Assembly: GCA_038257355.1 (NCBI GenBank)
Contig: JBBSJK010000004.1
Location: 8,637-72,636, forward strand
Reading direction: 5' to 3'
Length of the DNA: 64,000 nucleotides
Source of the DNA: Pyrinomonadales bacterium
GTDB taxonomy: Bacteria > Acidobacteriota > Blastocatellia > Pyrinomonadales > Pyrinomonadaceae
The notes under the pieces are model-generated. The model made no database searches. It had not been told where the DNA came from and was given only the letters and a program-made list of their open reading frames with translations. Every line of letters starts with the position of its first letter. Positions within the stretch are counted from its first letter, which is position 1. The position numbers were made by a program, and so were the translations under genes. This document shows, one piece after another, positions 6,184 to 57,782 of this stretch.

Positions 6184-6364
6184 CACTGCAAAAATGATCG
6201 TCCGGTAACCCTGCACCTGAAAAACCTTGGTGACGGTTTACATTTTATGTATACTCGATTACTGTGATGCCGCCTGTAGGACATACTATTTTGGGCAACG
6301 CGACGATCTTGCAACGCGTCTATAGTGGAGGTATTCCACAAACATTTAACCTTAGGGGGAACTT

Positions 6365-29448: not shown

Positions 29449-30228
29449 TCATTCCTTCAAAAATCTATCAGTAGCAATATCAGGCGTAAAACCATCAAGA
29501 TTGAGCCGGGTCATCCCGCCCGCGTCTGTATATGTTGTCATTTTTGAGCGTTTACCAACCCGCAGGTAGAAAAAGAAATAACCTGCGACAATACCTGCGA
29601 AGATCGAGAAAACGACTCCGCCGACAATCACCATAAGCGTGGACATAAAAATGTCAGCCGTAGTAAGGACAAATGCCCTCTCGGCGCTAATTAGAAAGGG
29701 GTTTTTGCCTAGCCACACGATGTCCTTTTCATATTTGACCTGATCGATTAGCAGGTTTGCGGAAGATCTGTCTGTCGCATCGAAAACGACGACATTGTAA
29801 TTGCCGATTCGACGATAAAAGGTGTTGCCGTCATCGCTTTCGGCAATCGCGGCGGTAATCTTTTCGTCGGCATCGACTGATCCCTGCGGACTTGTATATT
29901 CGATTATTAGAAGCTTACCGGCGTCGTATGGGGCTGTAACTGCCTCAGTGCCCGGGATGAAATCTATTAGATCAATAATCGGCCTTTCGCCAAGAGCTGA
30001 TTTTAGTTCGGGTGCGCTGGTCGCAAAAGTGGTTCTGTCACGAAGATTTTCCCAATCTGGTAAGTGTTTTATTAGAACCGGTATCCCGTCAATTTCCGAT
30101 ACCTCCTGACTTTTGTATGGTATCGAACCGACATTTTGGCCCAGTGAGAATAGGCTGATGATGCACGTTAGAAATAACGCGGAGAAGGATTTTCTTAATA
30201 AAAATATTTTGGACAATTGTAAAACCAT
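29449..30228 (-). CDS. Hypothetical exported protein with a C-terminal TM anchor
   Basis: N-terminal hydrophobic signal and a C-terminal 'LMVIVGGVVFSIFAGIVAGYFFFYL'. No recognised domain. Confidence 0.6.
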   Translation of the reverse strand: MVLQLSKIFLLRKSFSALFLTCIISLFSLGQNVGSIPYKSQEVSEIDGIPVLIKHLPDWENLRDRTTFATSAPELKSALGERPIIDLIDFIPGTEAVTAPYDAGKLLIIEYTSPQGSVDADEKITAAIAESDDGNTFYRRIGNYNVVVFDATDRSSANLLIDQVKYEKDIVWLGKNPFLISAERAFVLTTADIFMSTLMVIVGGVVFSIFAGIVAGYFFFYLRVGKRSKMTTYTDAGGMTRLNLDGFTPDIATDRFLKE

Positions 30229-30410
30229 TAGTCATTTTACGAACAGTTGTCTTCAGGTGTAAATATTAGCATTCTTTGCTTGAGAGGATAGCGAAAAAAG
30301 ACGCGGATAACACTACACCAAAACGTGTACTACCTGACGCACTCGTGATACGCATAACTACGCATCTACTTTTGGATGAAGATCGAATACAAGAATATGC
30401 CCGAGAAAGT

Positions 30411-36111: not shown

Positions 36112-36200
36112 AGTTTACTTTACCGCCGAGATGCGGACATGCAGAGATATAAACACAACAGATTATGCGCACTTTAACTCATTTTAGTAAATCCGACCGT

Positions 36201-38588
36201 ATGAAAATATTTTTTGTACTTTCCGCATCTCTGCGTTTCGTAGGTGTAATCGTGCTTGCCGCCGTCGCTGTCTCGGCACAGGTTCCAAGTCCGAGATCGG
36301 TTTTAGGCTTTAACCCAACCGACGACAAGACTATTGCCGACTGGGGCCAGATCACAGATTACTTTGCAAAGCTCGATAAGGCCAGCAACAAGGTAGCCGT
36401 TCGCGAGATCGGCAAAACTACGAACGGCAAACCCCTAATCACTGCCTTTATTTCCTCAGCGGGCAATATCAGGAATCTCGAAAAGTATCGCCAAATATCG
36501 GCAAAACTCGCCGATCCGCGAACCATAAAAAGCGAGTCCGAACTTGCCGATCTCATAAAAAATGGCAAGACAATCGTTACTATATCGTGCTCAATACACT
36601 CGACCGAGATTGTTGCCTCGCAGATGTCGATGAATCTGGCATATGAACTTGCCACTGCGACCGACAACGAAACAAAGGAAATACTCGATAACACCATCCT
36701 TTTGCTGATTCCGGCGGCAAATCCCGATGGCATCGATATCGTCGCCGACTGGTATCGTAAAACGCTAGGAACAAAGAGCGAGGGAACTGCGCCGCCTGAG
36801 CTTTATCATCATTATGCGGGTCACGACAACAACCGCGACTGGTTTATGCTCAATCTCGCCGAGACACAGGCGATCACAAAACTCTATTGGCAGCAATGGT
36901 TTCCGCAGTTTGTTTTCGACGTTCACCAGCAAGGCCGGACAGGATCACGCTTTACGATCCCGCCATTTTTTGATCCGCCAAATCCGCGTATTCCGCCCTC
37001 TCTACTGCGCGAAGTCGGGCTTATAGGCTACAAAATGGCGGCCGATCTGCAATCAAAAAATCTCGCGGGCGTCGCGACCAATGCTAGCTATGACACCTGG
37101 TGGCACGGCGGTTTTCGGTCTGCGCCGTATTATCACAACTCAATCGGCATTTTATCTGAGGCGGCCAGCGCGAGTTTGATGTCACCGACAACGGTTACGG
37201 TTGACGAGTTAAAGAGAAATCGGGCCGCCCGCGGTCTTGCCTCGGTCCTCGAATCGGCAACCAATTTCCCAGACACATGGAAGGGCGGCCTGTGGCGGCC
37301 TGCCGATATAGCCGAGCTCGAAATGATTGCATCGCGAAGTTTACTTCAGATGGCGGCAAAATTTCGCCCGCGATACCTCCGCAATTTTTACGAGATGGGC
37401 CGTGCCAATCTCGCTCCGGTCGCCGACGAGCCGGTCGCCTTCATAGTTCCCGCCGGACAGCCCAATGCTGGTTCCGTCTCACGGTTTCTCGAAATATTGA
37501 TGACCCAGGGAATGGAAGTACATCAGATGACGCAGGAGCTTTACGTAAAGCACGAGAAAGATCTTGTCGATTTTCACGAAATTCCCCTCGGTAGCTTTCT
37601 GGTTTTTGTAAATCAGCCTCAAAAGAACAACGTTTTAAGCCTGTTTGAGAAACAGGTTTATCCCGACCGCCGAAATGCTAATGGCGAGGCCGAGGTGCCG
37701 TACGATGTCGCGGGTTGGACGCTGCCGCTGCAGATGGGCATCGAGTACGAGACGATCTGGCAGATCCGAGATATGGAAAAAGATCGCCTGACACTAAAGC
37801 CCGTCGCAAATATCAATCAGGCCCGAGCGGTTATGAACCTCGACGCGCAAGCTGCACCATTTGCCAAATTGCCAAATCCGCTAAAGACGAATCCACGTAT
37901 TGGACTATATAAAGGATTTCCCGGTTCGATGGACGAGGGCTGGACGCGGCTCGTCCTCGATAACTTTCAGATCCCATATCGCGCGATCACGGACAAAGAT
38001 ATTAGAGCCGGAAATCTCGATGTGGACGTTCTTATTTTGCCGGCCGACAGCGAAAATTACATCGTTCGTGGTCTGAGCGCCGAGCGATATCCCGCCGAGT
38101 TCACCGGCGGCATCGGCGAACCCGGCGTCGACAATCTTAAAAAATTTGTCACAAACGGCGGTAAGCTGATCTGTTTTGAAGATTCGTGCGAAATGGTCAT
38201 CAAGCGTTTTAATCTGCCAATGAAAAACGTGCTCACCGGTCTCAATCGTAGCGAATTTTACAATCCAGGCTCAATCGTAAATCTCGAAGTGAATAAAGAT
38301 CAGCATCTGGCCCGCGGGTTGCGCGAGGAAACCGCGGCGTATTTTATAAACAGCTCGGCATTTGACGTAATCGACGACGCGAAGGTCACAACGGTCGCCA
38401 AATACGCCGTCAAAAATGCGCTGCTCTCCGGCTGGATGCTCGGCGAAAAATTTGTCAACGGCAAGACCGCTCTCGCCGAAACGAGCTACGGTAAAGGCAA
38501 GATCGTGCTGTTTGCGTTCCGGCCGCAACACCGAGGGCAAAGCTGGGCGACCTTTCCGTTTGTGTTTAATGCTCTGGAAAATGACTAA
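36201..38588 (+). CDS. M14 family zinc carboxypeptidase-like exported protein with a large C-terminal domain
   Basis: Signal '...AVSAQV', 'HSTE' (HxxE Zn site) and 'HHYAGHDNNRDW'. The ATG at 36201 is preferred over 36165. Confidence 0.8.
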   Translation: MKIFFVLSASLRFVGVIVLAAVAVSAQVPSPRSVLGFNPTDDKTIADWGQITDYFAKLDKASNKVAVREIGKTTNGKPLITAFISSAGNIRNLEKYRQISAKLADPRTIKSESELADLIKNGKTIVTISCSIHSTEIVASQMSMNLAYELATATDNETKEILDNTILLLIPAANPDGIDIVADWYRKTLGTKSEGTAPPELYHHYAGHDNNRDWFMLNLAETQAITKLYWQQWFPQFVFDVHQQGRTGSRFTIPPFFDPPNPRIPPSLLREVGLIGYKMAADLQSKNLAGVATNASYDTWWHGGFRSAPYYHNSIGILSEAASASLMSPTTVTVDELKRNRAARGLASVLESATNFPDTWKGGLWRPADIAELEMIASRSLLQMAAKFRPRYLRNFYEMGRANLAPVADEPVAFIVPAGQPNAGSVSRFLEILMTQGMEVHQMTQELYVKHEKDLVDFHEIPLGSFLVFVNQPQKNNVLSLFEKQVYPDRRNANGEAEVPYDVAGWTLPLQMGIEYETIWQIRDMEKDRLTLKPVANINQARAVMNLDAQAAPFAKLPNPLKTNPRIGLYKGFPGSMDEGWTRLVLDNFQIPYRAITDKDIRAGNLDVDVLILPADSENYIVRGLSAERYPAEFTGGIGEPGVDNLKKFVTNGGKLICFEDSCEMVIKRFNLPMKNVLTGLNRSEFYNPGSIVNLEVNKDQHLARGLREETAAYFINSSAFDVIDDAKVTTVAKYAVKNALLSGWMLGEKFVNGKTALAETSYGKGKIVLFAFRPQHRGQSWATFPFVFNALEND

Positions 38589-38721
38589 CCGGCTTTTACG
38601 ACTGCAATGAAATTTTAATACTAAAATAAGCCGACAATATGCTGCCACCGGCCTAATTAAAGCCTTTTTCAAAGTAATAACAAAGCTAACATTTTTCGGT
38701 GTTTTCATTTATTATTAGTTA

Positions 38722-41046
38722 ATGAATTTACGAAGTTTTTTCTTTCTCGTAACTTTCGTCACATTAGGTCCGGTGGTTCCTGCAAATCCTGGATATGAGT
38801 ATTTCAGGCTCCCGAGTGAACCTTTTATTCGCATCGGCTTGTCTACGAATTCCAATTCCGTGTCGATAACGACGACGGATTCGACACTGGTTGCGATTAG
38901 CCCGGACGAGCCTAATAAGCTGCTTGCGACGACGCGGGTAACAGTCGCCGCCCGAGCCTATCAGCCGCCGGAGGTCGAGAACTTTCGCATCGAGTTTCAG
39001 AACTTACCATCTCAGACGGATGCAAATACTTTGGCTAAAGACATTCGCGATGCAACCGGTGAGACCGCTCTGACTAGCATAGACCCGTCGACAAATACAT
39101 GGAGAGTGTGGGTTGGCACGGTGAAAGAAACGAGTCTCGACGCCGATGATCTCAAGGGCAAGTTGGCCGAAAAAGGATTTGATGACTCAGTTGTGATTAT
39201 CGAAAAAATGAGGGTTGTCTCGGAAGATGCCATTGCCTTGTCACAGCAGTTGCGGATCGCCGGCTCGTCTGAGGTGCGAAGCCTGATCACACCCACCGGT
39301 TCGGCAAGGCCAACCCTTGTCGGGCCGGTGGCCGGGAATCTTCGCGAGGTGATTGTCAATGGCCCCAGCGAGAGTGCAAAATATTCGTCGCTCAAATCGG
39401 TCGCCTTTGGCTCGCTGAATGAGCGGGCAAACCCGGTCCTGCTTAACGGCAAGGCGTATCGTGGCAAGATCGAGGTTTTTGTAAATGCGCGCGGTTCGCT
39501 GACGGTTGTCAATGTAGTGCCGCTCGAGGACTATTTGCTCGGCGTCGTGCCTGCGGAGTTGAGTCTGCCGCAGATCGAGGCTCAAAAGGCGCAGGCTGTC
39601 GCCGCCCGGACATACGCCATCGCCAATATCGGTGGTTACGGGAAACAGGGCTTTGATATGGTGCCGACCGTCTGGTCTCAGGTTTACAAGGGCGTTTCGA
39701 TTGAATCGCGAATGGGAACTCAGGCCGTGCAGGAGACCCGCGGCATCGTCGCCACATATAACGGAAAGCCGATAAACGCATATTATACATCGACATGCGG
39801 CGGACGTACCGAGAATTCTGAGAACATTTTCGATCACGCCGAGCCTTACTTACGCGGTGTCGAATGCTCGCTAGAGGGGAGGCGCCATTTTGAACCGTTT
39901 CTGATAAAAACATCCCGCACATCGGCTAAGGTTCGCGAAGAAGGCAATCTCGATCTCGTCCGCTTGATGTCCATGCTTGCGATAAATGGCTTTCAACTTT
40001 CGACCGGACAGATGACCGACGACTGGTTTGAGGACGTGCCAACTGAAAGCGAGATGTCCAATTGGCTCAACAACATCGCTGGACGGTTTGGTAAGACCTT
40101 TCCAAACATAACTCGCGAAACGGCAAAGCCCGCTGAACTAGCGAGGATGCTCACTGGCATTATCTACCCACCTGAATTTGCCGATACTATGCTCAGCGAT
40201 TCTGATGTTAACTACCATCTTTCCTTTGACGATGCAGCCGAAATACCAAAAGAGAGGCGGGCCGATATCGCCATTCTACTGCGTGATGGCTATTTTACGA
40301 TCCATCCCGATCAGACACTAAAGCCGAACCGGCCATTTACTCGGGCCTTAATGCTTCGTCTTATTCGTCAAATCTTTGAAAAGAAAAAATGGATGCCCAC
40401 CCTTGAGAGCGGCGTTACAAAGCCGACCGCCGACGGCAAACTGATCCTCAAAACTGGTCGCACTGAGCGGCAACTGAATGTCAGGCCCGATGTATTTCTA
40501 TTTCGCGAATTTGGTGGAACGATGTATCCCGTCCGAGAGGCCGCGATTGTCGGCGGTGAGCAGGTAAACTTTCGGCTCGACCCATCCGGAGCGATCATCT
40601 ATCTGGAAATCAAACCGATCGATACCCCGACAACCGCCGAAAATAATTCATCCTTTGTTTATTGGAACACCTCACTCTCGCCCGTCCAAGTCCAGTCGCG
40701 CCTGTCGAGATACGTCCGGGGCATCGGCACTCTGTATGACCTGAATATCAAGCGAAAAGGGTACTCACGACGTGCGGTCGAGCTCGAGATCATTGGCTCT
40801 AATGGAACAAAAATTCTCAAAGGCGGCAAGATCCGCTCGGCCCTCCGCCTAAACGAGCAATTGTTCGTCATCAACAAACGTTATTCGGGATCAAATGTCA
40901 CGGGTTATACCTTCACCGGCCGCGGCTGGGGCCACGGCGTCGGAATGTGTCAATATGGCGCCTTTGGCCTCGCAAAAATGGGTATAAAATACGACGAGAT
41001 CATCAAGCATTATTACTCCGGCGTCGAATTAACGAAAGCTTTCTGA
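38722..41046 (+). CDS. SpoIID/LytB domain protein (with SPOR-like region)
   Basis: 'YTSTCGGRTEN' and 'GRGWGHGVGMCQYGA' SpoIID signatures. Confidence 0.9.
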   Translation: MNLRSFFFLVTFVTLGPVVPANPGYEYFRLPSEPFIRIGLSTNSNSVSITTTDSTLVAISPDEPNKLLATTRVTVAARAYQPPEVENFRIEFQNLPSQTDANTLAKDIRDATGETALTSIDPSTNTWRVWVGTVKETSLDADDLKGKLAEKGFDDSVVIIEKMRVVSEDAIALSQQLRIAGSSEVRSLITPTGSARPTLVGPVAGNLREVIVNGPSESAKYSSLKSVAFGSLNERANPVLLNGKAYRGKIEVFVNARGSLTVVNVVPLEDYLLGVVPAELSLPQIEAQKAQAVAARTYAIANIGGYGKQGFDMVPTVWSQVYKGVSIESRMGTQAVQETRGIVATYNGKPINAYYTSTCGGRTENSENIFDHAEPYLRGVECSLEGRRHFEPFLIKTSRTSAKVREEGNLDLVRLMSMLAINGFQLSTGQMTDDWFEDVPTESEMSNWLNNIAGRFGKTFPNITRETAKPAELARMLTGIIYPPEFADTMLSDSDVNYHLSFDDAAEIPKERRADIAILLRDGYFTIHPDQTLKPNRPFTRALMLRLIRQIFEKKKWMPTLESGVTKPTADGKLILKTGRTERQLNVRPDVFLFREFGGTMYPVREAAIVGGEQVNFRLDPSGAIIYLEIKPIDTPTTAENNSSFVYWNTSLSPVQVQSRLSRYVRGIGTLYDLNIKRKGYSRRAVELEIIGSNGTKILKGGKIRSALRLNEQLFVINKRYSGSNVTGYTFTGRGWGHGVGMCQYGAFGLAKMGIKYDEIIKHYYSGVELTKAF

Positions 41047-41085: not shown

Positions 41086-41922
41086 ATGTTTACAATTGTG
41101 CGGTCACGCAAATTATTCTACTTGATGGTGATTTTGACGGTGGCTTTTGGCGCCGTCACCGTATCAAGTGCACAGACCACGCAGACTGAAAAGACTGCCT
41201 TGGGGTCAAAGACAGCAAGAGAGGGCTTTAAGAATGAGACTGAGATTGCTGTAAAATTTAACAATTGGAGGACTGATGAGGACGCCAGGGCCTGGCTCAC
41301 TGTGATGAATTACAAACTCGGCGAGATCGAAGCGGTTGCGGCGACAAAGCCGCACGGGGCCAAGGCGGATGTCGTACTCAGGATTAATACTAAGACTGGC
41401 GAAACGCAGCAGGGCATTTCGATCAAGCTCGTGAGCAGCCCGAACGGTTTTAATCAGATCGACAAGCGCTGGCTTGCGACCTACGCCAAGATGTGGCGAA
41501 TGCCCGCCGACGTGCACACGGCACTAAAACTCTATGTCGGCGAAACACCGCCCACAAAACCGAGTCGCAACCCCAAGCGGATGTTTATAAACGAATTAGA
41601 CGCAGCGACCCGACAGGCGATCGTCGATTTTTTCACTGCGAATAAAGATGAGATAGTCTCGGATTTTTTTGCGGGTGACGGCAGTCTTGCTGCGGGCTGG
41701 GTGATGGTGGCGTTTAAGGCCACCGAGCAACCGCGCTGGATCATTCGATCAACCGCCGATACTATCAAATTCTTCAGCGAGGGCAAGGTCGAGATAACCC
41801 GTGCCGGCAATCTAAAAATAGGTCGCGTCACCATGCAACGAAAAGGCGGCGACGGCGGCCGCGAGACGGCGAAGATGCTGCAGTTTAAGTTCAATCCAGT
41901 TCAACTGTTTGATGCAAAATGA
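41086..41922 (+). CDS. HinP1I/MspI-family restriction endonuclease-like protein with an N-terminal Sec signal peptide
   Basis: 'LGSKTAREGFKNETEIAVKF', 'KADVVLRI...GISIKLVSSPNGFNQIDKRW' and 'GRVTMQRKGGDGGRETAKMLQFKF' parallel the remembered R.HinP1I sequence. The N-terminus 'MFTIVRSRKLFYLMVILTVAFGAVTVSSA|QT' is signal-like. Confidence 0.7.
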   Translation: MFTIVRSRKLFYLMVILTVAFGAVTVSSAQTTQTEKTALGSKTAREGFKNETEIAVKFNNWRTDEDARAWLTVMNYKLGEIEAVAATKPHGAKADVVLRINTKTGETQQGISIKLVSSPNGFNQIDKRWLATYAKMWRMPADVHTALKLYVGETPPTKPSRNPKRMFINELDAATRQAIVDFFTANKDEIVSDFFAGDGSLAAGWVMVAFKATEQPRWIIRSTADTIKFFSEGKVEITRAGNLKIGRVTMQRKGGDGGRETAKMLQFKFNPVQLFDAK

Positions 41923-42020
41923 GATTTTCACGTAGTCAGATTATCGGATCGGTGATACTGCTTGCGGTGATATTGGCATTTGGGGCCTGGCGTTGGTATT
42001 CCGTGGCCGGTTTAGCTTAG
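41919..42020 (+). CDS. Possible 33-aa single-TM micro-ORF, translationally coupled (ATGA) to the nuclease-like gene
   Basis: My own translation gives MRFSRSQIIGSVILLAVILAFGAWRWYSVAGLA*. It is below the ORF-track size cutoff. Confidence 0.3.
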   Translation: MRFSRSQIIGSVILLAVILAFGAWRWYSVAGLA

Positions 42021-42229
42021 TCTGATTCACCTTTTTTAACCTGTTTATTGTCCATTTGAAAGATTGTAATTGCCGTGCATGAGATCGAGGATGATGTGGG
42101 AATTGTAAGATTTTGGAAATTTATACAGTGCGAACAAAAATGAAAAACGTGCGGCAGCTGTTAGTTTTTTAGGGTGATTTTTTTTGCATTTTAAACTTTA
42201 CTTAATTTTGGGTGTTGGGAATCTAATTT

Positions 42230-42251
42230 AAATGTGGCACGTGCCACATTT
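42230..42251. repeat. 22-bp perfect palindrome 'aaatgtggcac|gtgccacattt'
   Basis: Read directly. It lies in an AT-rich ORF-free region. Confidence 0.9.
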
Positions 42252-42349
42252 TTTGCATCTATATTTCCTGAATGACGGTATTTATTGGGGTTCGCTATAC
42301 AACTGCAGTTGTGACACAGTCGAAATGACAGAGTTTGGTACACGGAAAA

Positions 42350-42436
42350 ATGTGTTACTTGGGTTAATTTTGGCTTGTTTGGTACAGTTATTTGTAAGAT
42401 TGGTGAAAGGTTGTGATGCCCAAAAAAACTGTACCA
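42350..42436 (+). repeat. Noncoding element sharing ~62-67 nt with window positions 5-71, plus a 10-bp-stem hairpin
   Basis: Identical 12-mers 'tttggtacagtt' (37-48 / 42378-42389) and 'ttggtgaaaggt' (60-71 / 42400-42411) at 23 vs 22 nt spacing, with 'atgtgt' and 'ttgggt' collinear upstream. 'tggtacagtt' (42380-42389) pairs with 'aactgtacca' (42427-42436). Confidence 0.75.
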
Positions 42437-42687
42437 GGGACTGCCAAAATCGCCAATTACGTACAAGGGAAGTTCCTCGCTACAGGTCTCAAAAGGGTAG
42501 TAGGCGGTTTGAAAAAGACGGTCAAACCGTTTCTCTGAACTCCGCGTCGTACTCGGCGAAATCCGCGATAAACGAATGTTGCTGAGCCAAAGATTGTGGG
42601 AGCTTTTTATTCACACTGAACCAGTACCCTCAAAAACTTAATCCACACACGCCAATGAGATTTTCTGTGCTAATCTGAGTCAAATCT

Positions 42688-43611
42688 GTGGTTCCAAATC
42701 TCACTAAAAATCCAATCTACGCGATTGCGGGCCCGACCGCATCCGGCAAGACCGGGCTGGGTGTCGAATTGGCCCTGCGTATAGGCGGCGAGGTCGTCAA
42801 TTGCGATTCGGTACAGATTTATCGGGGCATCAATATAGCTACTGCAAAGCCGTCTGAGACGGAAAAAGGCGGTGTGCCGCATCATTTGATCGATTATGTG
42901 GACCCGAATATTAGCTATACCGCGGCCGACTGGGCGGCCGACGCAGCAGCGAAGATAACTGAGATCGAATCGCGCGGTGAAACTCCGATCCTTGTAGGCG
43001 GAACCGGATTTTATTTACGCACACTTCGCCAGCCGCTTTTTGACAGCCCGAAAACAGATGAAAATTTGCGTGAGCGTCTCGGTTTAATTCATAAAACACG
43101 TGGGCACGGGTATATGCACGCGATGCTGCGTCGGGTCGATCCGGCGGCAGCCGTGAAATTGCCGCCGCGTGATTACGTCCGGGTTATTCGCGCTCTTGAG
43201 GTGTATTTTCAGACTGGCGGGAGGCTTTCTGACCAGCAGTCAAACCGAGCTGTGCCACCTGATTTCGCATCACGGATTCGTCTGTATGTACTAAATCCAC
43301 CTCGTGCCGAGCTATACGATAAGATAAACCGTCGAACGGAAGAGCATTTTGCCGCCGGATTGGTCGATGAGGTTAAGCATCTGCTGGAGCTTGGCGTCAG
43401 AGACAGTGGTAACGCCCTCGGGGCCCACGCCTACCGGCGGGTTTGCGAATACCTGCGCGGTGAGAGGTCTCTGGAATCGGCGATCGAGCAGTCGAAACAG
43501 GATGTCCGTAATTATGCAAAACGTCAGCTAACATGGTTTCGACGTGAGCCGGATGTGATCTGGCTCAATGGATTTGGCAATGATGATGCTGTTCGCTCCT
43601 CTCTTTTTTAG
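42688..43611 (+). CDS. miaA: tRNA dimethylallyltransferase
   Basis: 'IAGPTASGKTGLG', 'NCDSVQIYRG' and 'YAKRQLTWFR'. GTG start. Confidence 0.95.
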   Translation: MVPNLTKNPIYAIAGPTASGKTGLGVELALRIGGEVVNCDSVQIYRGINIATAKPSETEKGGVPHHLIDYVDPNISYTAADWAADAAAKITEIESRGETPILVGGTGFYLRTLRQPLFDSPKTDENLRERLGLIHKTRGHGYMHAMLRRVDPAAAVKLPPRDYVRVIRALEVYFQTGGRLSDQQSNRAVPPDFASRIRLYVLNPPRAELYDKINRRTEEHFAAGLVDEVKHLLELGVRDSGNALGAHAYRRVCEYLRGERSLESAIEQSKQDVRNYAKRQLTWFRREPDVIWLNGFGNDDAVRSSLF

Positions 43612-43767
43612 AACTAATTTTTCAGCAGTAAATATCTGATAACCTGCGGCGAGGCGACTTAAAAAAGGTGAATGACGCAAAAATATCTTAAGGCGGCTAA
43701 ATCTGATATAATCGAAAAACATCCCGTGGTTTTTTACTTGGAATCAATGATTCGTTGAGGATTTGTT

Positions 43768-44001
43768 ATGGAAAAGCAGGTTGCGCAAAATATTCAGGAT
43801 GCCTTTTTAAACTCGGCCCGCCGCGAGCGCATCTCGGTGGTTATACATCTTTTACAAGGGACGACGATCTCGGGCCGGATCAAGAGCTTTGATAAATTTT
43901 CGGTTTTGCTTGATGTTGGCGGCCCTGACGCATTAATATTCAAGCACGCAATTTCCTCGATTTCGCAGGAACGGCGACCGGCACCTGACCACTCATCTTG
44001 A
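43768..44001 (+). CDS. hfq: RNA chaperone Hfq
   Basis: 'NIQDAFLNSARRERISVVIHLLQGTTISGRIKSFDKFSVLL...IFKHAISSI' covers Sm1/Sm2. The miaA-hfq synteny is classic. Confidence 0.95.
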   Translation: MEKQVAQNIQDAFLNSARRERISVVIHLLQGTTISGRIKSFDKFSVLLDVGGPDALIFKHAISSISQERRPAPDHSS

Positions 44002-44624
44002 AGGGAAAGTTCATCACGTTTGAGGGGATCGACGGCAGCGGCAAATCTACCCAGCTGGGAATGCTGGCAGCGAATTTGAGCGCCCACGGAGTCGATCTGA
44101 TAATTACCCGCGAGCCTGGCGGCACACCGCTCGGCCGTCGCTTGCGCGAAGCTTTTCTGGAGACGCAGGAGATTGTCGCACCGATGGCTGAGCTGCTCTC
44201 ATTTGCCGCCGACCGGGCACAGCATGTTGAGCAATTGATCAAACCGGGCCTGGCCGCTGGCCGCATCGTTATTTCTGACCGCTATGCCGACGCCACATTT
44301 GCGTATCAGGGCGCCGGACGCGGCTTTCCAGAGGATAAGGTCTTGCAAGTGATCGACCTCGCTACTGGCGGATTAAAACCCGATCTGACACTATTTTTTG
44401 ATATTTCTGTTGAAACTGCGATCAAGCGGATGGACGCTCGCGATGAGACACATGCGAAAAAGAACCGCATGGACGGCGAAACTGCCGAGTTTTATAACCG
44501 CGTCCGCAACTCGTATCTCGGCATCGCCGAGCGTGAGCCCGAACGCTTTCGAGTAATCAACGGTTCAGGAGAGATCGAGAGTATTCAAACCGAGGTTATG
44601 GCGTTGGTGACAGAAAGGCTTTAG
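43998..44624 (+). CDS. tmk: dTMP kinase
   Basis: 'FITFEGIDGSGKSTQ' and 'DRYADATFAYQG'. The TTG start overlaps the hfq stop (TTGA). Confidence 0.93.
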   Translation: MKGKFITFEGIDGSGKSTQLGMLAANLSAHGVDLIITREPGGTPLGRRLREAFLETQEIVAPMAELLSFAADRAQHVEQLIKPGLAAGRIVISDRYADATFAYQGAGRGFPEDKVLQVIDLATGGLKPDLTLFFDISVETAIKRMDARDETHAKKNRMDGETAEFYNRVRNSYLGIAEREPERFRVINGSGEIESIQTEVMALVTERL

Positions 44625-44719
44625 AGTCCCGGAAAGGGAGAGATTTGGCCGCTTTGCGGTGAAAGAGGGAGTTTTCAGACACCTTATCCCTTTCAGAGAC
44701 AAATAAATAATTTTGACGA

Positions 44720-45754
44720 ATGCTAAAGAATCTCGTTGGAAATGAACATGTCAAGCAAACTCTGCGGCACTTGATCGCCAAACGCCGCGTGCCTAATTCA
44801 CTGCTGTTTGCGGGTGACGACGGCATCGGCAAGCGTCAGTTTGCGATTGAGATCGCTAAAAGTTTTGTCTGTACGGAACCAGCCGGAGGCGAGGCGTGTG
44901 ATGTCTGCCCGGCGTGCCGACGGGCAGGAGCTTTTATCTATCCAAAATCCGACGACCGGGACGCCCACAAACGTCTCATATTTAGCGATCACCCAGACAT
45001 TGGCACTGTGATTCCCTATAACCGCAATATTTTGGTCGATGCCGTCCGGCATCTCGAATCTGAGGCTAACTTTCGTCCATACGAGGCAGCGGCCCGTTTT
45101 TTTATCATTGATGACGCTGATAAAATGAACAATTCAGCGTCAAACGCCCTGCTTAAAACGCTTGAGGAGCCGCCATCGACCACGCACATATTTCTGATTA
45201 CATCGAGGGCTGATTCGCTGCTGCCGACGATCCGTTCGCGTTGCCAGACGCTGAGATTTGCACCGGTCGCTGATGACGAGATCGAGAGATTTTTGACCGA
45301 GGACCGGGCATTTACACCAGACGAGGCGAGGCTCGCGGCCAGATTGTCGCGTGGCAGCATCGGAAGGGCGGTCTCGATAAATGTTGCAAAATTTCGTATT
45401 AGCCGCGATCGGATGCTGGCGGTGGTGACAAATGTGATCGAGACAGGCGACCGTGCCGCATTGCTTAAAATCTCAGAGGAGCTGAACGATGCCAAGAACA
45501 AAGACGGCTTTGAGGATAATCTAGATACGCTGCAATCTCTGATCCATGACGTCTGGTCTCTGCGGGTAGGCGGAGACGAGGCCCGGCTGGTCAATGCCGA
45601 CCTCTCAGACAAACTCGCCCGCCTGGCGGCAGACGCCGGTTCCGCCGATATGCCTTCTTGGCTGGCGGCGATAGACACAATGCGAGAGAATTTTGCCGTC
45701 AACATTAATCGCAAGATCGCGGCAGACGCCCTATTCGTGGGAATGGCCGCTTGA
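44720..45754 (+). CDS. holB: DNA polymerase III delta-prime subunit
   Basis: 'LLFAGDDGIGKRQFA', Zn module 'CDVCPACRR', 'FIIDDADKMN' and 'SRCQTLRF'. Confidence 0.85.
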   Translation: MLKNLVGNEHVKQTLRHLIAKRRVPNSLLFAGDDGIGKRQFAIEIAKSFVCTEPAGGEACDVCPACRRAGAFIYPKSDDRDAHKRLIFSDHPDIGTVIPYNRNILVDAVRHLESEANFRPYEAAARFFIIDDADKMNNSASNALLKTLEEPPSTTHIFLITSRADSLLPTIRSRCQTLRFAPVADDEIERFLTEDRAFTPDEARLAARLSRGSIGRAVSINVAKFRISRDRMLAVVTNVIETGDRAALLKISEELNDAKNKDGFEDNLDTLQSLIHDVWSLRVGGDEARLVNADLSDKLARLAADAGSADMPSWLAAIDTMRENFAVNINRKIAADALFVGMAA

Positions 45755-56107: not shown

Positions 56108-57499
56108 TTAGTTGCCGTAATTGCGGCCGGCCGGATAGGTGACCTTGGAGCGTGCAAGCCGCGTGTCGAGCGACATGGCGTCGTAGGCCATCGGTAAAGC
56201 TCCGCCAAACTGTCCCTGGACGAGAGAAACAAATGAATTCTGAAACGTCCGGAATCTTGCCACATTGCCGCGTTGGTTAAAGATGACGAACAGCAGTCTT
56301 CCGTTCCGCGTATTGACCTCGCCGGCCAGAGCGCTGACGCCGCCATCGGTGCGGCCGAGAGTCCCGGTTTTGCCGACAACGCTGCCGCGGGCAAAATCTG
56401 CGTCAAAGCGGCCTTCCAGCGTGCCTTTGTCAATTCCTGCGACAGGCATAATATCTGCAAAGGTCATCTTGTGTTTGGCGAGATCCGAGCGGAGAGCACG
56501 CAAAAGCCGCATCATCGCATTTGGGGTGACACGGTTGATGCCAAGCCCACTGGCGGTCTGGAGTGTGAATTCCTGCGGCGGTACTTTCGCGTTTAGATGT
56601 ACCGAACGAGCAACCGCATACGGGCCGCCAACCAGATCGCCAAGCCGTTCAGACAGAAAGTTATTTGAATAACAGAGTGTCGCCTTAATGATCTCGCGTA
56701 GCTGTGCTGATTCGTGTGTAAAGAGCAACTGGAGGTTGCTGGGGATCGGCTGGACATAGACAGCGCCGGAAAATGCGACGCCCGGAACACCCGTAACCTG
56801 CCCGAACTGCCCCGAATACGAAAGATGACTGAGCCACAAACGTGTGGCAGCGGCATTTCGTTTCGACATGTCCATCGAAGCAAAAAGTAACTTTCCCGAG
56901 GATAGCGAAGAACCCGAGTAATTCATTACAAAATTATCGGTTACGATCAGATCACCGTTGACCGAGCGAATGCCTAAGCGGTTTAATTCGTATGCCAGTG
57001 CGATGGCGTGCTGATATCCGAACATGGGATCTTTGCCCGATACATAGACGTTACCGTTTAGGACACCGGTCGTCGGATCGACCGCTCCATCAGTGAAAAC
57101 GTTTGTCATAAAGCGAAATTCCGGGCCGAATGTTTTAAGTACGGCGTAGGCGGTCGCAATCTTAACGTTTGATGCCGGGTTGAACGCAAAATTCGAATTG
57201 CTTTCAATAACCACATTGCCATCCAGCGATTCGATTAAGACGCCCGAATAACCCGGGATCGAGACGCCCGCAAGGGCAGGGAAAAGCGTTCTGATGCCAT
57301 TCGCATTCGCCGCGACGACGCTGCCGGTTTTCATAACCAGCGGTGTTGATGAAGGGACGGCTGAGTAAGTTTCAGTCTTTAACTGAATGTCTTGAATCAA
57401 AGGCGTTCGCGACGACTGTCCAAAAGCGGGTACAGTTGTTAAAACCATGAACGCGGCAATAAATAAAATGTAAAGTGATTTTGTGGCAGGTTTTGTCAT
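56108..57499 (-). CDS. dacB: D-alanyl-D-alanine carboxypeptidase/endopeptidase (PBP4, S13 family)
   Basis: Signal '...PAFGQS', SxxK 'PASNVK' and 'KTGTL' box. The ATG at 57499 is preferred. Confidence 0.85.
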   Translation of the reverse strand: MTKPATKSLYILFIAAFMVLTTVPAFGQSSRTPLIQDIQLKTETYSAVPSSTPLVMKTGSVVAANANGIRTLFPALAGVSIPGYSGVLIESLDGNVVIESNSNFAFNPASNVKIATAYAVLKTFGPEFRFMTNVFTDGAVDPTTGVLNGNVYVSGKDPMFGYQHAIALAYELNRLGIRSVNGDLIVTDNFVMNYSGSSLSSGKLLFASMDMSKRNAAATRLWLSHLSYSGQFGQVTGVPGVAFSGAVYVQPIPSNLQLLFTHESAQLREIIKATLCYSNNFLSERLGDLVGGPYAVARSVHLNAKVPPQEFTLQTASGLGINRVTPNAMMRLLRALRSDLAKHKMTFADIMPVAGIDKGTLEGRFDADFARGSVVGKTGTLGRTDGGVSALAGEVNTRNGRLLFVIFNQRGNVARFRTFQNSFVSLVQGQFGGALPMAYDAMSLDTRLARSKVTYPAGRNYGN

Positions 57500-57782
57500 G
57501 AATATCGTGCCGCTCGGCTTGATCGGAAGGAAGGTTAGCACCGCCCAAAAGCAACGCTAAAATGAATATACCACATTTGGCGGCAAAACTCCAAATTTTC
57601 GGATTTCCCGAATCATAGCCCTCTGCGGGTTGCCATTTATGATGAATTTCACGAGCGCCGGGATGTATTTGAAATTAAGCGTCGCTTATGGCATTCATTA
57701 CCTTTATTTATACACAAAATCGAAACTAAATGGAAGAGTTCTTTTATAGCTGAATGGAAATAATTTGACGGACAACGTCAGG

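Follow-up and report, generated by a model that had tools for sequence, protein, structure and literature searches.

The subject of this report is one gene in a 64,000-nucleotide stretch of DNA from a Pyrinomonadales bacterium (Acidobacteriota; assembly GCA_038257355.1, contig JBBSJK010000004.1, positions 8,637 to 72,636 of the forward strand), a stretch referred to here as the window, and whose own numbering is used for all coordinates within it. The gene, an open reading frame (ORF) at 41086-41922 on the plus strand with its stop codon at 41920-41922, encodes a HinP1I-family endonuclease as a 278-residue precursor. Type II restriction enzymes count as cytoplasmic toxins, tolerated by their hosts by virtue of a partner methylase that marks host DNA. 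The features assembled below make it probable that the product of this gene is a Sec-exported HinP1I-type endonuclease that would work on double-stranded DNA outside the cytoplasm, and outside any restriction-modification (R-M) system.

A full-length homologue of R.HinP1I

The assignment draws on the ORF list, which has the gene exactly where the original prediction had placed it, and on Pfam, PDB, PADLOC and Foldseek. Against Pfam, the product matches the whole of PF11463, R-HINP1I (profile positions 1-208 of 208, E 3.1e-57), in a match that begins at residue 74; in the PADLOC anti-phage library it is recognized as REase_II, a type II restriction enzyme (E 2.8e-75), in a match that begins at residue 37. 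Chain residues 5-246 of R.HinP1I itself (PDB 1YNM) align with residues 38-276 of the window protein (E 2.4e-60). An AlphaFold (AF2) model of the window protein, made from 54 homologues, has a predicted local distance difference test (pLDDT) score of 88, rising above 90 over most of the mature nuclease domain (Q30-K278; 41173-41919, plus strand), whose HinP1I-like fold begins at about L39 as judged from the HinP1I alignment and the model. Searched with this model, Foldseek returned 2FKC_A as the best PDB match (E 3e-29, template-modelling (TM) score 0.89), together with 1YNM (TM score 0.89), and MspI (1SA3_A, E 1.4e-8) as the sole other significant match. The window ORF is thus a genuine full-length R.HinP1I homologue, and the family membership that the original prediction had claimed is borne out by strong Pfam, PDB and Foldseek matches. 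Its accompanying claim of kinship with MspI holds at the level of the fold (1SA3) but finds no counterpart at the level of sequence, in either the Pfam or the PDB search. Significant Pfam, PDB and fold matches are confined to HinP1I and MspI, with no homology to the exported-nuclease families EndA/Dns, NucA and SNase, and an NCBIfam search of the nuclease returned no match.

Active site and DNA recognition

Residue conservation was counted over the 120 closest homologues, all members of the clade described in the next section, and over 93 other family representatives. In HinP1I the active site is made up of E18, D62, Q81 and K83, and F91 is one of the DNA contacts. The equivalent of the acidic residue E18 is E51 (codon 41236-41238), invariant in 120/120 clade members and found in 88/93 of the other representatives. 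The D...SxK block in which the original prediction had seen the catalytic residues is D95...S112-I-K114 (41368-41427), which aligns with HinP1I D62...Q81-V-K83 and whose D and K are likewise invariant in the clade. Downstream of it, the DNA-recognition segment F122-N-Q124-I-D-K127 (41449-41466) corresponds to HinP1I F91, Q93 and K96, and K253 (codon 41842-41844), the counterpart of HinP1I K223, lies inside a conserved QRKGGDxGR loop; all of these features are on the plus strand. According to a paper on HhaI, the first guanine (G1) of the HinP1I site is read by K96, and the G2:C2 pair by Q93 and K223 jointly (PMC7026639). Every one of E51, D95, S112, K114, F122, Q124, K127 and K253 is invariant among the 120 closest homologues, and the DNA-reading segments, GFNQIDKxW and QRKGGDxGRxTAxMLQFK, are almost the same as in HinP1I. 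Since both the catalytic and the recognition residues are invariant, the window enzyme is probably active, with a specificity for GCGC.

The position equivalent to HinP1I residue 81 is occupied by Ser in 120/120 clade members, and also in 62/93 other representatives. Because Ser is thus the majority state across the family, classical members adjacent to a methyltransferase included, S112 is no defect; Ser112 as a mark of inactivity was ruled out, S-x-K being the family norm.

A conserved signal peptide defines a clade

At its N-terminus the window protein exceeds HinP1I by 33 residues, which comprise MFTIVRSRK, 17 uncharged and mostly hydrophobic residues, Ser-Ser-Ala, Gln30 and a short linker. 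Residues 1-29 (41086-41172, plus strand) have the n-, h- and c-regions of a signal peptide (MFTIVRSRK, LFYLMVILTVAFGAVTV and SSA, respectively), with predicted cleavage at A29|Q30, as the original prediction had proposed, and in the structural model residues 4-28 are helical. All 120 closest homologues have an equivalent extension, its sequence itself being unconserved. What recurs is a pattern: the best 10-residue hydrophobicity of the extension has a median of 3.0, its uncharged stretch a median length of 17 residues, and its n-region a net positive charge in 109/120. A Gln follows in 120/120, standing at a median of 10 residues ahead of the start of the fold, and the residue just before the first such Gln is A, G, S or T in 114/120.

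With those from species-representative genomes and metagenomes included, roughly 200 clade members were examined, and every one has a signal-peptide-like extension. The original prediction had named an internal TTG codon as a possible true start; no orthologue starts there, and all keep the extension in frame while its sequence varies. An untranslated leader would not remain in frame across about 200 diverged sequences. Clade N-termini have neither a conserved lipobox Cys nor a twin-arginine motif, which makes Sec and signal peptidase I the best candidate route. Moreover, with a positive n-region ahead of it, the helix would keep the catalytic domain out of the cytoplasm even without cleavage. 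By this pattern and its conservation, the gene product is a predicted Sec-exported precursor with a conserved Sec-type signal peptide.

A search reduced to one representative per 50%-identity cluster gave 501 family representatives, and just a handful of these clusters are of the signal-peptide type. The remaining members, termed classical here, start a few residues before the fold, and a hydrophobic N-terminus occurs in just 1/82 of their full-length representatives. In a neighbour-joining tree, 84 signal-peptide sequences form one clade, separate from 32 classical representatives, with a mean identity of about 70% within the clade, 41% between clade and classical sequences, and 39% among classical sequences. 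The signal-peptide clade is monophyletic. One of its members (P0121, 559 aa) is extended at the C-terminus by 290 residues that match no Pfam family.

Glutamine directly after the predicted cleavage site is found beyond the nuclease, standing at +1 in 8 of about 9 exported proteins of the window (with junctions ..AFAQ, ..SAAQ, ..IYAQ, ..VFGQ, ..VSAQ, ..AFGQ and ..SLGQ). The ORFs concerned start at 6356, 7359, 33749, 34337 and 36165 on the plus strand, or lie at 29452-30231 and 56111-57556 on the minus strand. A crude scan of related loci found Gln at +1 in 83/205 putative exported proteins. Such a "Q-rule" has been described as Bacteroidetes-specific, in a paper that makes no mention of Acidobacteria (PMC5837995); a Q-rule in Pyrinomonadaceae would predict a glutaminyl cyclase there. 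At one Planctomycetota-labelled locus (L043, 10924-11754, minus strand) the gene directly downstream of the nuclease, in convergent orientation, encodes signal peptidase I (Peptidase_S26, E 1e-40), which is probably a coincidence.

Methyltransferase linkage

Methyltransferases were sought by tblastn with two C5 methyltransferase domains, which are the N-terminal parts of natural methyltransferase-endonuclease fusions of the HinP1I family, and by motif scans. Neither approach found a DNA methyltransferase in the 64-kb window, with a sensitivity that is low for enzymes other than C5, and the absence reported in the original prediction is to that extent upheld. Nor was any found in 86 loci (1.2 Mb) by C5 tblastn or by scans for C5, N4 and N6 motifs. 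In the representative search, P0127, P0169 and P0248 are classical members that are themselves natural C5 methyltransferase-endonuclease fusions.

As a positive control, 80 metagenomic loci were fetched with a profile of classical members, and a locus was counted if it offered at least 1.3 kb of upstream sequence. A C5 methyltransferase lay within 2.5 kb in 43/43 classical loci, usually 1-110 bp upstream; the corresponding count for signal-peptide genes is 0/69, both at that distance and over the full length of the flanks fetched. The difference in adjacency is extreme (Fisher p about 1e-26; four loci entered in that run as classical without a methyltransferase, L031, L060, L064 and L072, are clade members just under the hydrophobicity cut-off). 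With 43/43 set against 0/69, loss of the methylase goes with gain of the signal peptide.

Avoidance of GCGC

The original prediction had described GCGC as visibly common in the window. The opposite is the case, with 150 sites observed against 362 expected under a maximal-order Markov model, the lowest ratio among the 16 palindromic tetranucleotides. Carriers of the gene have a GCGC observed/expected (O/E) ratio of 0.41-0.54, and over 65 related loci the median is 0.53, compared with 0.97 for CGCG, 0.86 for GGCC and 0.92 for CCGG. When 865 kb from Acidobacteria-type carriers were pooled, none of the 256 tetranucleotides was as depleted as GCGC (0.48); in the Planctomycetota-labelled set GCGC (0.62) ranked second, behind CTAG. 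Shuffling of synonymous codons, which holds protein sequence and codon usage fixed, gave observed/shuffled ratios of 0.48 for the window (z -9.9), 0.54 for Acidobacteria-type carriers (z -36) and 0.68 for Planctomycetota-labelled carriers (z -24), with a similar deficit of GCGC in all three codon phases (0.48-0.54) and CGCG at about 1.0.

All ten flank classes of NGCGCN are depleted (0.36-0.63), so the avoided unit is the tetranucleotide GCGC itself, and a longer avoided site of the HaeII, NarI or Eco47III type was ruled out. Mutational decay of methylated sites was considered as another source of the deficit. If the inner C of GCGC, the position methylated by enzymes of the M.HhaI type, carried 5-methylcytosine, then GTGC/GCAC should be in excess; carriers show no such excess (0.99). 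The missing deamination signature argues against decay, and the idea was rejected. A mild rise of other GCGN words is an arithmetic consequence of the removal of GCGC.

Three controls, taken as non-carriers, were scored in the same two ways: a region of E. coli (0.83 by Markov, 1.01 by shuffling), a Granulicella plasmid (0.87 and 0.93), and the Singulisphaera acidiphila plasmid pSINAC01 (L088, 1-50000; 0.68 and 0.63), which is itself GCGC-poor. Hosts of classical family members range widely, with O/E values from 0 to 1.46. The specificity predicted from the recognition residues is the very word that carriers avoid, and this coincidence strongly suggests that the enzyme is linked to the bias.

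Other words also deviate. GATC (1.25-1.49) and TCGA (1.15-1.33) are over-represented in carrier coding regions relative to synonymous shuffles, GATC being likewise high in controls (Granulicella 1.26, Singulisphaera 1.41), and the Acidobacteria-type set is short of AATC/GATT (0.68).

Chromosomal slot and distribution

The gene sits in a neighbourhood of exported envelope proteins (a 3D-domain protein, a LolA-like protein, an M14 peptidase and a SpoIID-domain protein). Its upstream anchor consists of the last two of these, identified with Pfam as cell-envelope enzymes at 36165-38588 and 38722-41046 (together 36165-41046, plus strand), which occur in the same order in about 40 related loci; 40 bp separate the end of the SpoIID gene from the start of the nuclease. 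The downstream anchor, the ORFs miaA-hfq-tmk-holB at 42688-45754 (plus strand), follows the nuclease in about 30 related loci as well. The M14 peptidase, SpoIID and miaA flanks named in the original prediction are therefore all present. Between the nuclease or its micro-ORF and miaA, the roughly 770 bp at 41923-42687 have no convincing ORF and no Rfam match; Rfam finds nothing elsewhere in the window either, and promoter and terminator scans around the gene stayed at chance level.

In a scan of one genome per species, a relative is encoded by at least 516 genomes, the best 80 of which, without exception, have the signal-peptide type. About 50 of these 80 are Pyrinomonadaceae, "Chloracidobacterium" or Blastocatellia metagenome-assembled genomes (MAGs), in which the gene occupies one slot, preceded by M14 peptidase-SpoIID and followed by miaA-hfq-tmk-holB, the variable genes in the gaps amounting to 0-8 kb. 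Compared with the window, their syntenic neighbours show 67-80% identity, similar to the identity of the nuclease itself. Because the neighbours diverge about as much as the nuclease does, descent appears to be vertical, and the gene looks inherited rather than mobile. The other carriers, about 30, are labelled as Planctomycetota MAGs and have the gene in unrelated housekeeping contexts; their nucleases form a near-monophyletic subgroup with an ...AQ(E/D) junction. Several MAG records with the gene (L040, L047, L059, L065, L077, L080 and others) bear the names Candidatus Kuenenia, Planctomyces or Chitinophaga, although their G+C is 54-61% (55-60% under the Kuenenia label) and their nucleases belong to one subclade. 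The taxonomic labels of these MAGs look unreliable, which makes the phylum spread of the clade provisional.

The gap between SpoIID and the nuclease (L005, 6997-7648; also in L003, L007 and others) holds variable cargo, such as a PIN/MazE toxin-antitoxin pair and ankyrin-repeat, DoxX/MauE, DUF1304 and amidohydrolase genes. Downstream, 22 loci have a putative glycoside hydrolase, assigned to GH92 by eye. In one long-read Pyrinomonadaceae MAG (L021, 10004-11737) the reading frame runs on from the C-terminus of the nuclease into a domain of glycoside hydrolase family 43 (GH43; Pfam E 1.9e-48), for a product of 577 aa behind a single signal peptide, a fusion that we regard as putative, and in L003 the next gene after the nuclease encodes an alkaline phosphatase. 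The fusion and the phosphatase neighbour are anecdotal; they fit an extracytoplasmic, possibly nutrient-related role.

A translationally coupled micro-protein

Directly after the nuclease, at 41919-42020 on the plus strand, lies a micro-ORF of 33 aa (MRFSRSQIIGSVILLAVILAFGAWRWYSVAGLA), the ATG of which overlaps the nuclease stop codon (ATGA) and whose product has one predicted transmembrane helix. The layout of the window's micro-protein, MRFSRSQIIG followed by the hydrophobic helix and an arginine, is that of a family with the consensus MRFS[RK]xQIxG, about 14 hydrophobic residues and Arg, for a total of 27-35 aa. Such a micro-ORF follows the nuclease in 38/52 Acidobacteria-type loci, with the ATGA overlap in 31, and in none of 30 Planctomycetota-labelled loci. 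In L006 it was called by the gene caller, and in L021 it still follows the nuclease gene fused to GH43. Searches of Pfam and NCBIfam assigned it to no family, weak matches to Hok, TatA and DUF3017 falling far below the cut-offs. Given its translational coupling to the nuclease, the micro-ORF suggests a protein that would act with the nuclease at the inner membrane.

How the enzyme may work

An exported nuclease of restriction fold without an R-M partner was the central proposal of the original prediction, and it is supported by the family match, the conserved extension, the 0/69 count for methyltransferases and the synteny. The course of events may be pictured as follows. The precursor would be made with a cleavable signal peptide, to judge from the sequence pattern and its conservation, and would pass SecYEG unfolded. 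A methyltransferase would be needless because the exported precursor would not fold next to the chromosome. Signal peptidase I would cleave after Ala29 and expose Gln30, and the mature 249-residue monomer would adopt the HinP1I-like fold that homology and model predict. Catalysis would be carried out by E51/D95/S112/K114 with a divalent metal, and GCGC would be read by F122/Q124/K127/K253, as the invariant residues indicate; by analogy with HinP1I, G^CGC would be cut one strand at a time. The job of the enzyme would most likely be the fragmentation of DNA at the periplasm or cell surface, either as a nutrient or in the processing of incoming DNA, and the co-translated 33-aa membrane micro-protein would probably assist or restrain it at the inner membrane. 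Of the roles named in the original prediction (scavenging of extracellular DNA, remodelling of the biofilm matrix, a barrier to incoming DNA), any may be the benefit. The two-fold depletion of GCGC suggests that the enzyme is active on this word and has had access to host DNA in the course of evolution, perhaps through occasional failure of export or in the form of kin DNA outside cells.

Several points weigh against this account. Localisation, activity and specificity are all read from sequence and a model, and the signal peptide itself was called with metrics of our own definition, together with conservation. An unlinked methyltransferase elsewhere in the genome is possible, N4 and N6 enzymes having been screened by motifs alone. 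The neighbouring genes vary, and when all of them were clustered, no DNA-related gene recurred in the variable slot that would speak to a role. The non-carrier controls for GCGC avoidance are few, imperfect and distant from Blastocatellia, and the Singulisphaera plasmid among them is also low. Finally, an enzyme without access to the chromosome would not be expected to drive avoidance of its site, so the depletion requires an extra assumption; it shows that the chromosome is not wholly insulated from GCGC-directed pressure.

Alternative explanations

This last point would be met if the exported enzyme serves as a periplasmic restriction barrier, which would cut incoming double-stranded DNA (transforming DNA and possibly some phage DNA) at GCGC ahead of its entry into the cytoplasm. 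Kin DNA would be spared in part, since the lineage has purged its GCGC sites, and self would be marked by this depletion in place of methylation. All the evidence for export and activity applies here equally, and the avoidance of exactly GCGC by carrier genomes is directly accounted for. Retention of the gene by a minimum of 80 species, and probably by several hundred, from two phylum-level MAG groups would imply a strong and constant benefit, and Lig E, a DNA ligase of the periplasm that acts on transforming DNA (bioRxiv 10.64898/2026.03.22.713542), shows that DNA enzymes are at work in this compartment. However, depletion is no more than about two-fold. In the window a GCGC still occurs every 430 bp or so, so that kin DNA would be cut into short pieces too and discrimination would be weak. 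Phage genomes are for the most part injected without exposure to the periplasm, and the surroundings of the locus showed no competence genes. We consider a barrier of this kind rather unlikely.

The locus might instead hold half of an ordinary split type II R-M system, in which a cytoplasmic enzyme, perhaps tethered by its uncleaved helix, coexists with an unlinked GCGC methyltransferase that protects the chromosome. Separated R-M systems are documented (PMC3488263), and GCGC avoidance is typical of genuine restriction hosts, some carriers of classical members having O/E values of 0-0.3. Yet by the positive-inside rule a positive n-region ahead of the helix would put the C-terminal domain outside; linked methyltransferases number 0/69 in the clade and 43/43 among classical loci; and the gene order has held in at least 50 species-level genomes, whereas R-M genes are usually mobile. 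The absence of excess GTGC/GCAC is weak evidence against 5-methylcytosine (5mC) at these sites, and the member fused to GH43, an often-exported family, keeps the nuclease behind a single signal peptide. A type IIP R-M system would be expected to have a linked methyltransferase, a cytoplasmic enzyme free of any export signal and a patchy, mobile distribution, and none of the three is seen in the window's clade. A split system is, on these grounds, very improbable.

That the product is exported and binds GCGC, or DNA in general, without cutting, for example as an organiser of extracellular matrix DNA, is scarcely to be expected: restriction enzymes similar to active ones can be inactive, as in the case of HindVP (PMC3488263), and Ser does replace the Gln81 of HinP1I, but E51, D95 and K114 are invariant in 120/120 where lost catalysis normally relaxes such positions, and Ser is the majority state of the family, methyltransferase-adjacent members included.

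Export to act on DNA outside the cytoplasm, apart from any R-M system, remains our preferred reading. A bolder version of it would combine the separate strands, and station the lineage-wide, methylase-free GCGC endonuclease, with a dedicated membrane micro-protein as its partner, in the periplasm or outside the cell, where it would hold back or process foreign DNA, kin DNA being protected by the purging of sites; we offer this as speculation that we would not expect to hold. If true, site purging would be a second, non-epigenetic form of self-marking in restriction, and would give a restriction-enzyme class a life outside R-M.

Comparison with known systems

Solitary restriction endonuclease genes have been explained by unlinked methylases, pseudogenes, silence, absence of sites, repair or proteolysis (PMC3488263). 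Export is absent from that list, and the text has none of the terms signal, secret-, periplasm or extracellular. A 2014 survey of type II enzymes makes no mention of periplasm, secretion or extracellular location, and in the literature searched we found no published exported type II enzyme, or HinP1I with a signal peptide, in the present sense. Export would thus be an added explanation for solitary restriction genes, one not considered in the literature searched; what the window and its relatives appear to represent is a large, conserved and vertically inherited clade that handles toxicity by export and not by methylation. The clade further suggests that, in soils rich in Pyrinomonadaceae, environmental DNA is the target of a nuclease with sequence specificity, and the tie between an exported enzyme and the strongest oligonucleotide bias of its host genomes is both unexpected and testable. 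In practical terms, it offers candidates for naturally secreted HinP1I isoschizomers, as well as a new micro-protein family.

The closest known enzyme is R.HinP1I of Haemophilus influenzae P1 (PDB 1YNM, 2FKC; type IIP, G^CGC), with which the window protein shares about 40% identity across the whole fold, the same active-site arrangement and the DNA contacts F91, Q93, K96, K223 and QRKGGDxGR loop; by homology, it should likewise be monomeric with one active site. R.HinP1I begins four residues ahead of the fold, without a signal peptide, and is partnered by a methyltransferase. The window protein differs in its 29-residue signal peptide and linker of about nine residues, in having no linked methyltransferase, and in its fixed chromosomal slot and coupled membrane micro-protein. 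R.MspI (PDB 1SA3, C^CGG) has the same monomeric two-sheet fold (TM score about 0.6), but shows no detectable sequence similarity (14% identity in a structural alignment) and uses other specificity determinants.

Solitary enzymes of the PacI type (Ershova et al., 2012; PMC3488263) resemble the window gene in that a type II endonuclease gene stands without an adjacent methyltransferase. PacI is tolerated through the absence of its sites from the host genome (PMC3488263), whereas GCGC in the window is depleted yet present, at 150 sites in 64 kb. Lig E, the subject of the preprint cited above, offers a parallel of another sort, a normally cytoplasmic type of DNA enzyme that a signal peptide has moved to the periplasm, where it acts on extracellular or transforming DNA; it is a ligase of unrelated fold and has been described experimentally, unlike the window nuclease, which is known from sequence.

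In function, the window nuclease resembles endonuclease I (EndA/Dns), Serratia NucA and staphylococcal nuclease, which are periplasmic or extracellular nucleases without an immunity methylase. Exported non-specific nucleases pass through Sec and need no methylase, since they fold outside the cytoplasm. Their roles include degradation of extracellular DNA, nutrient supply and control of transformation (PMC13522737). They differ in having unrelated folds and no sequence specificity, whereas the window protein comes from a family specific for 4 bp, and its hosts avoid its predicted site.

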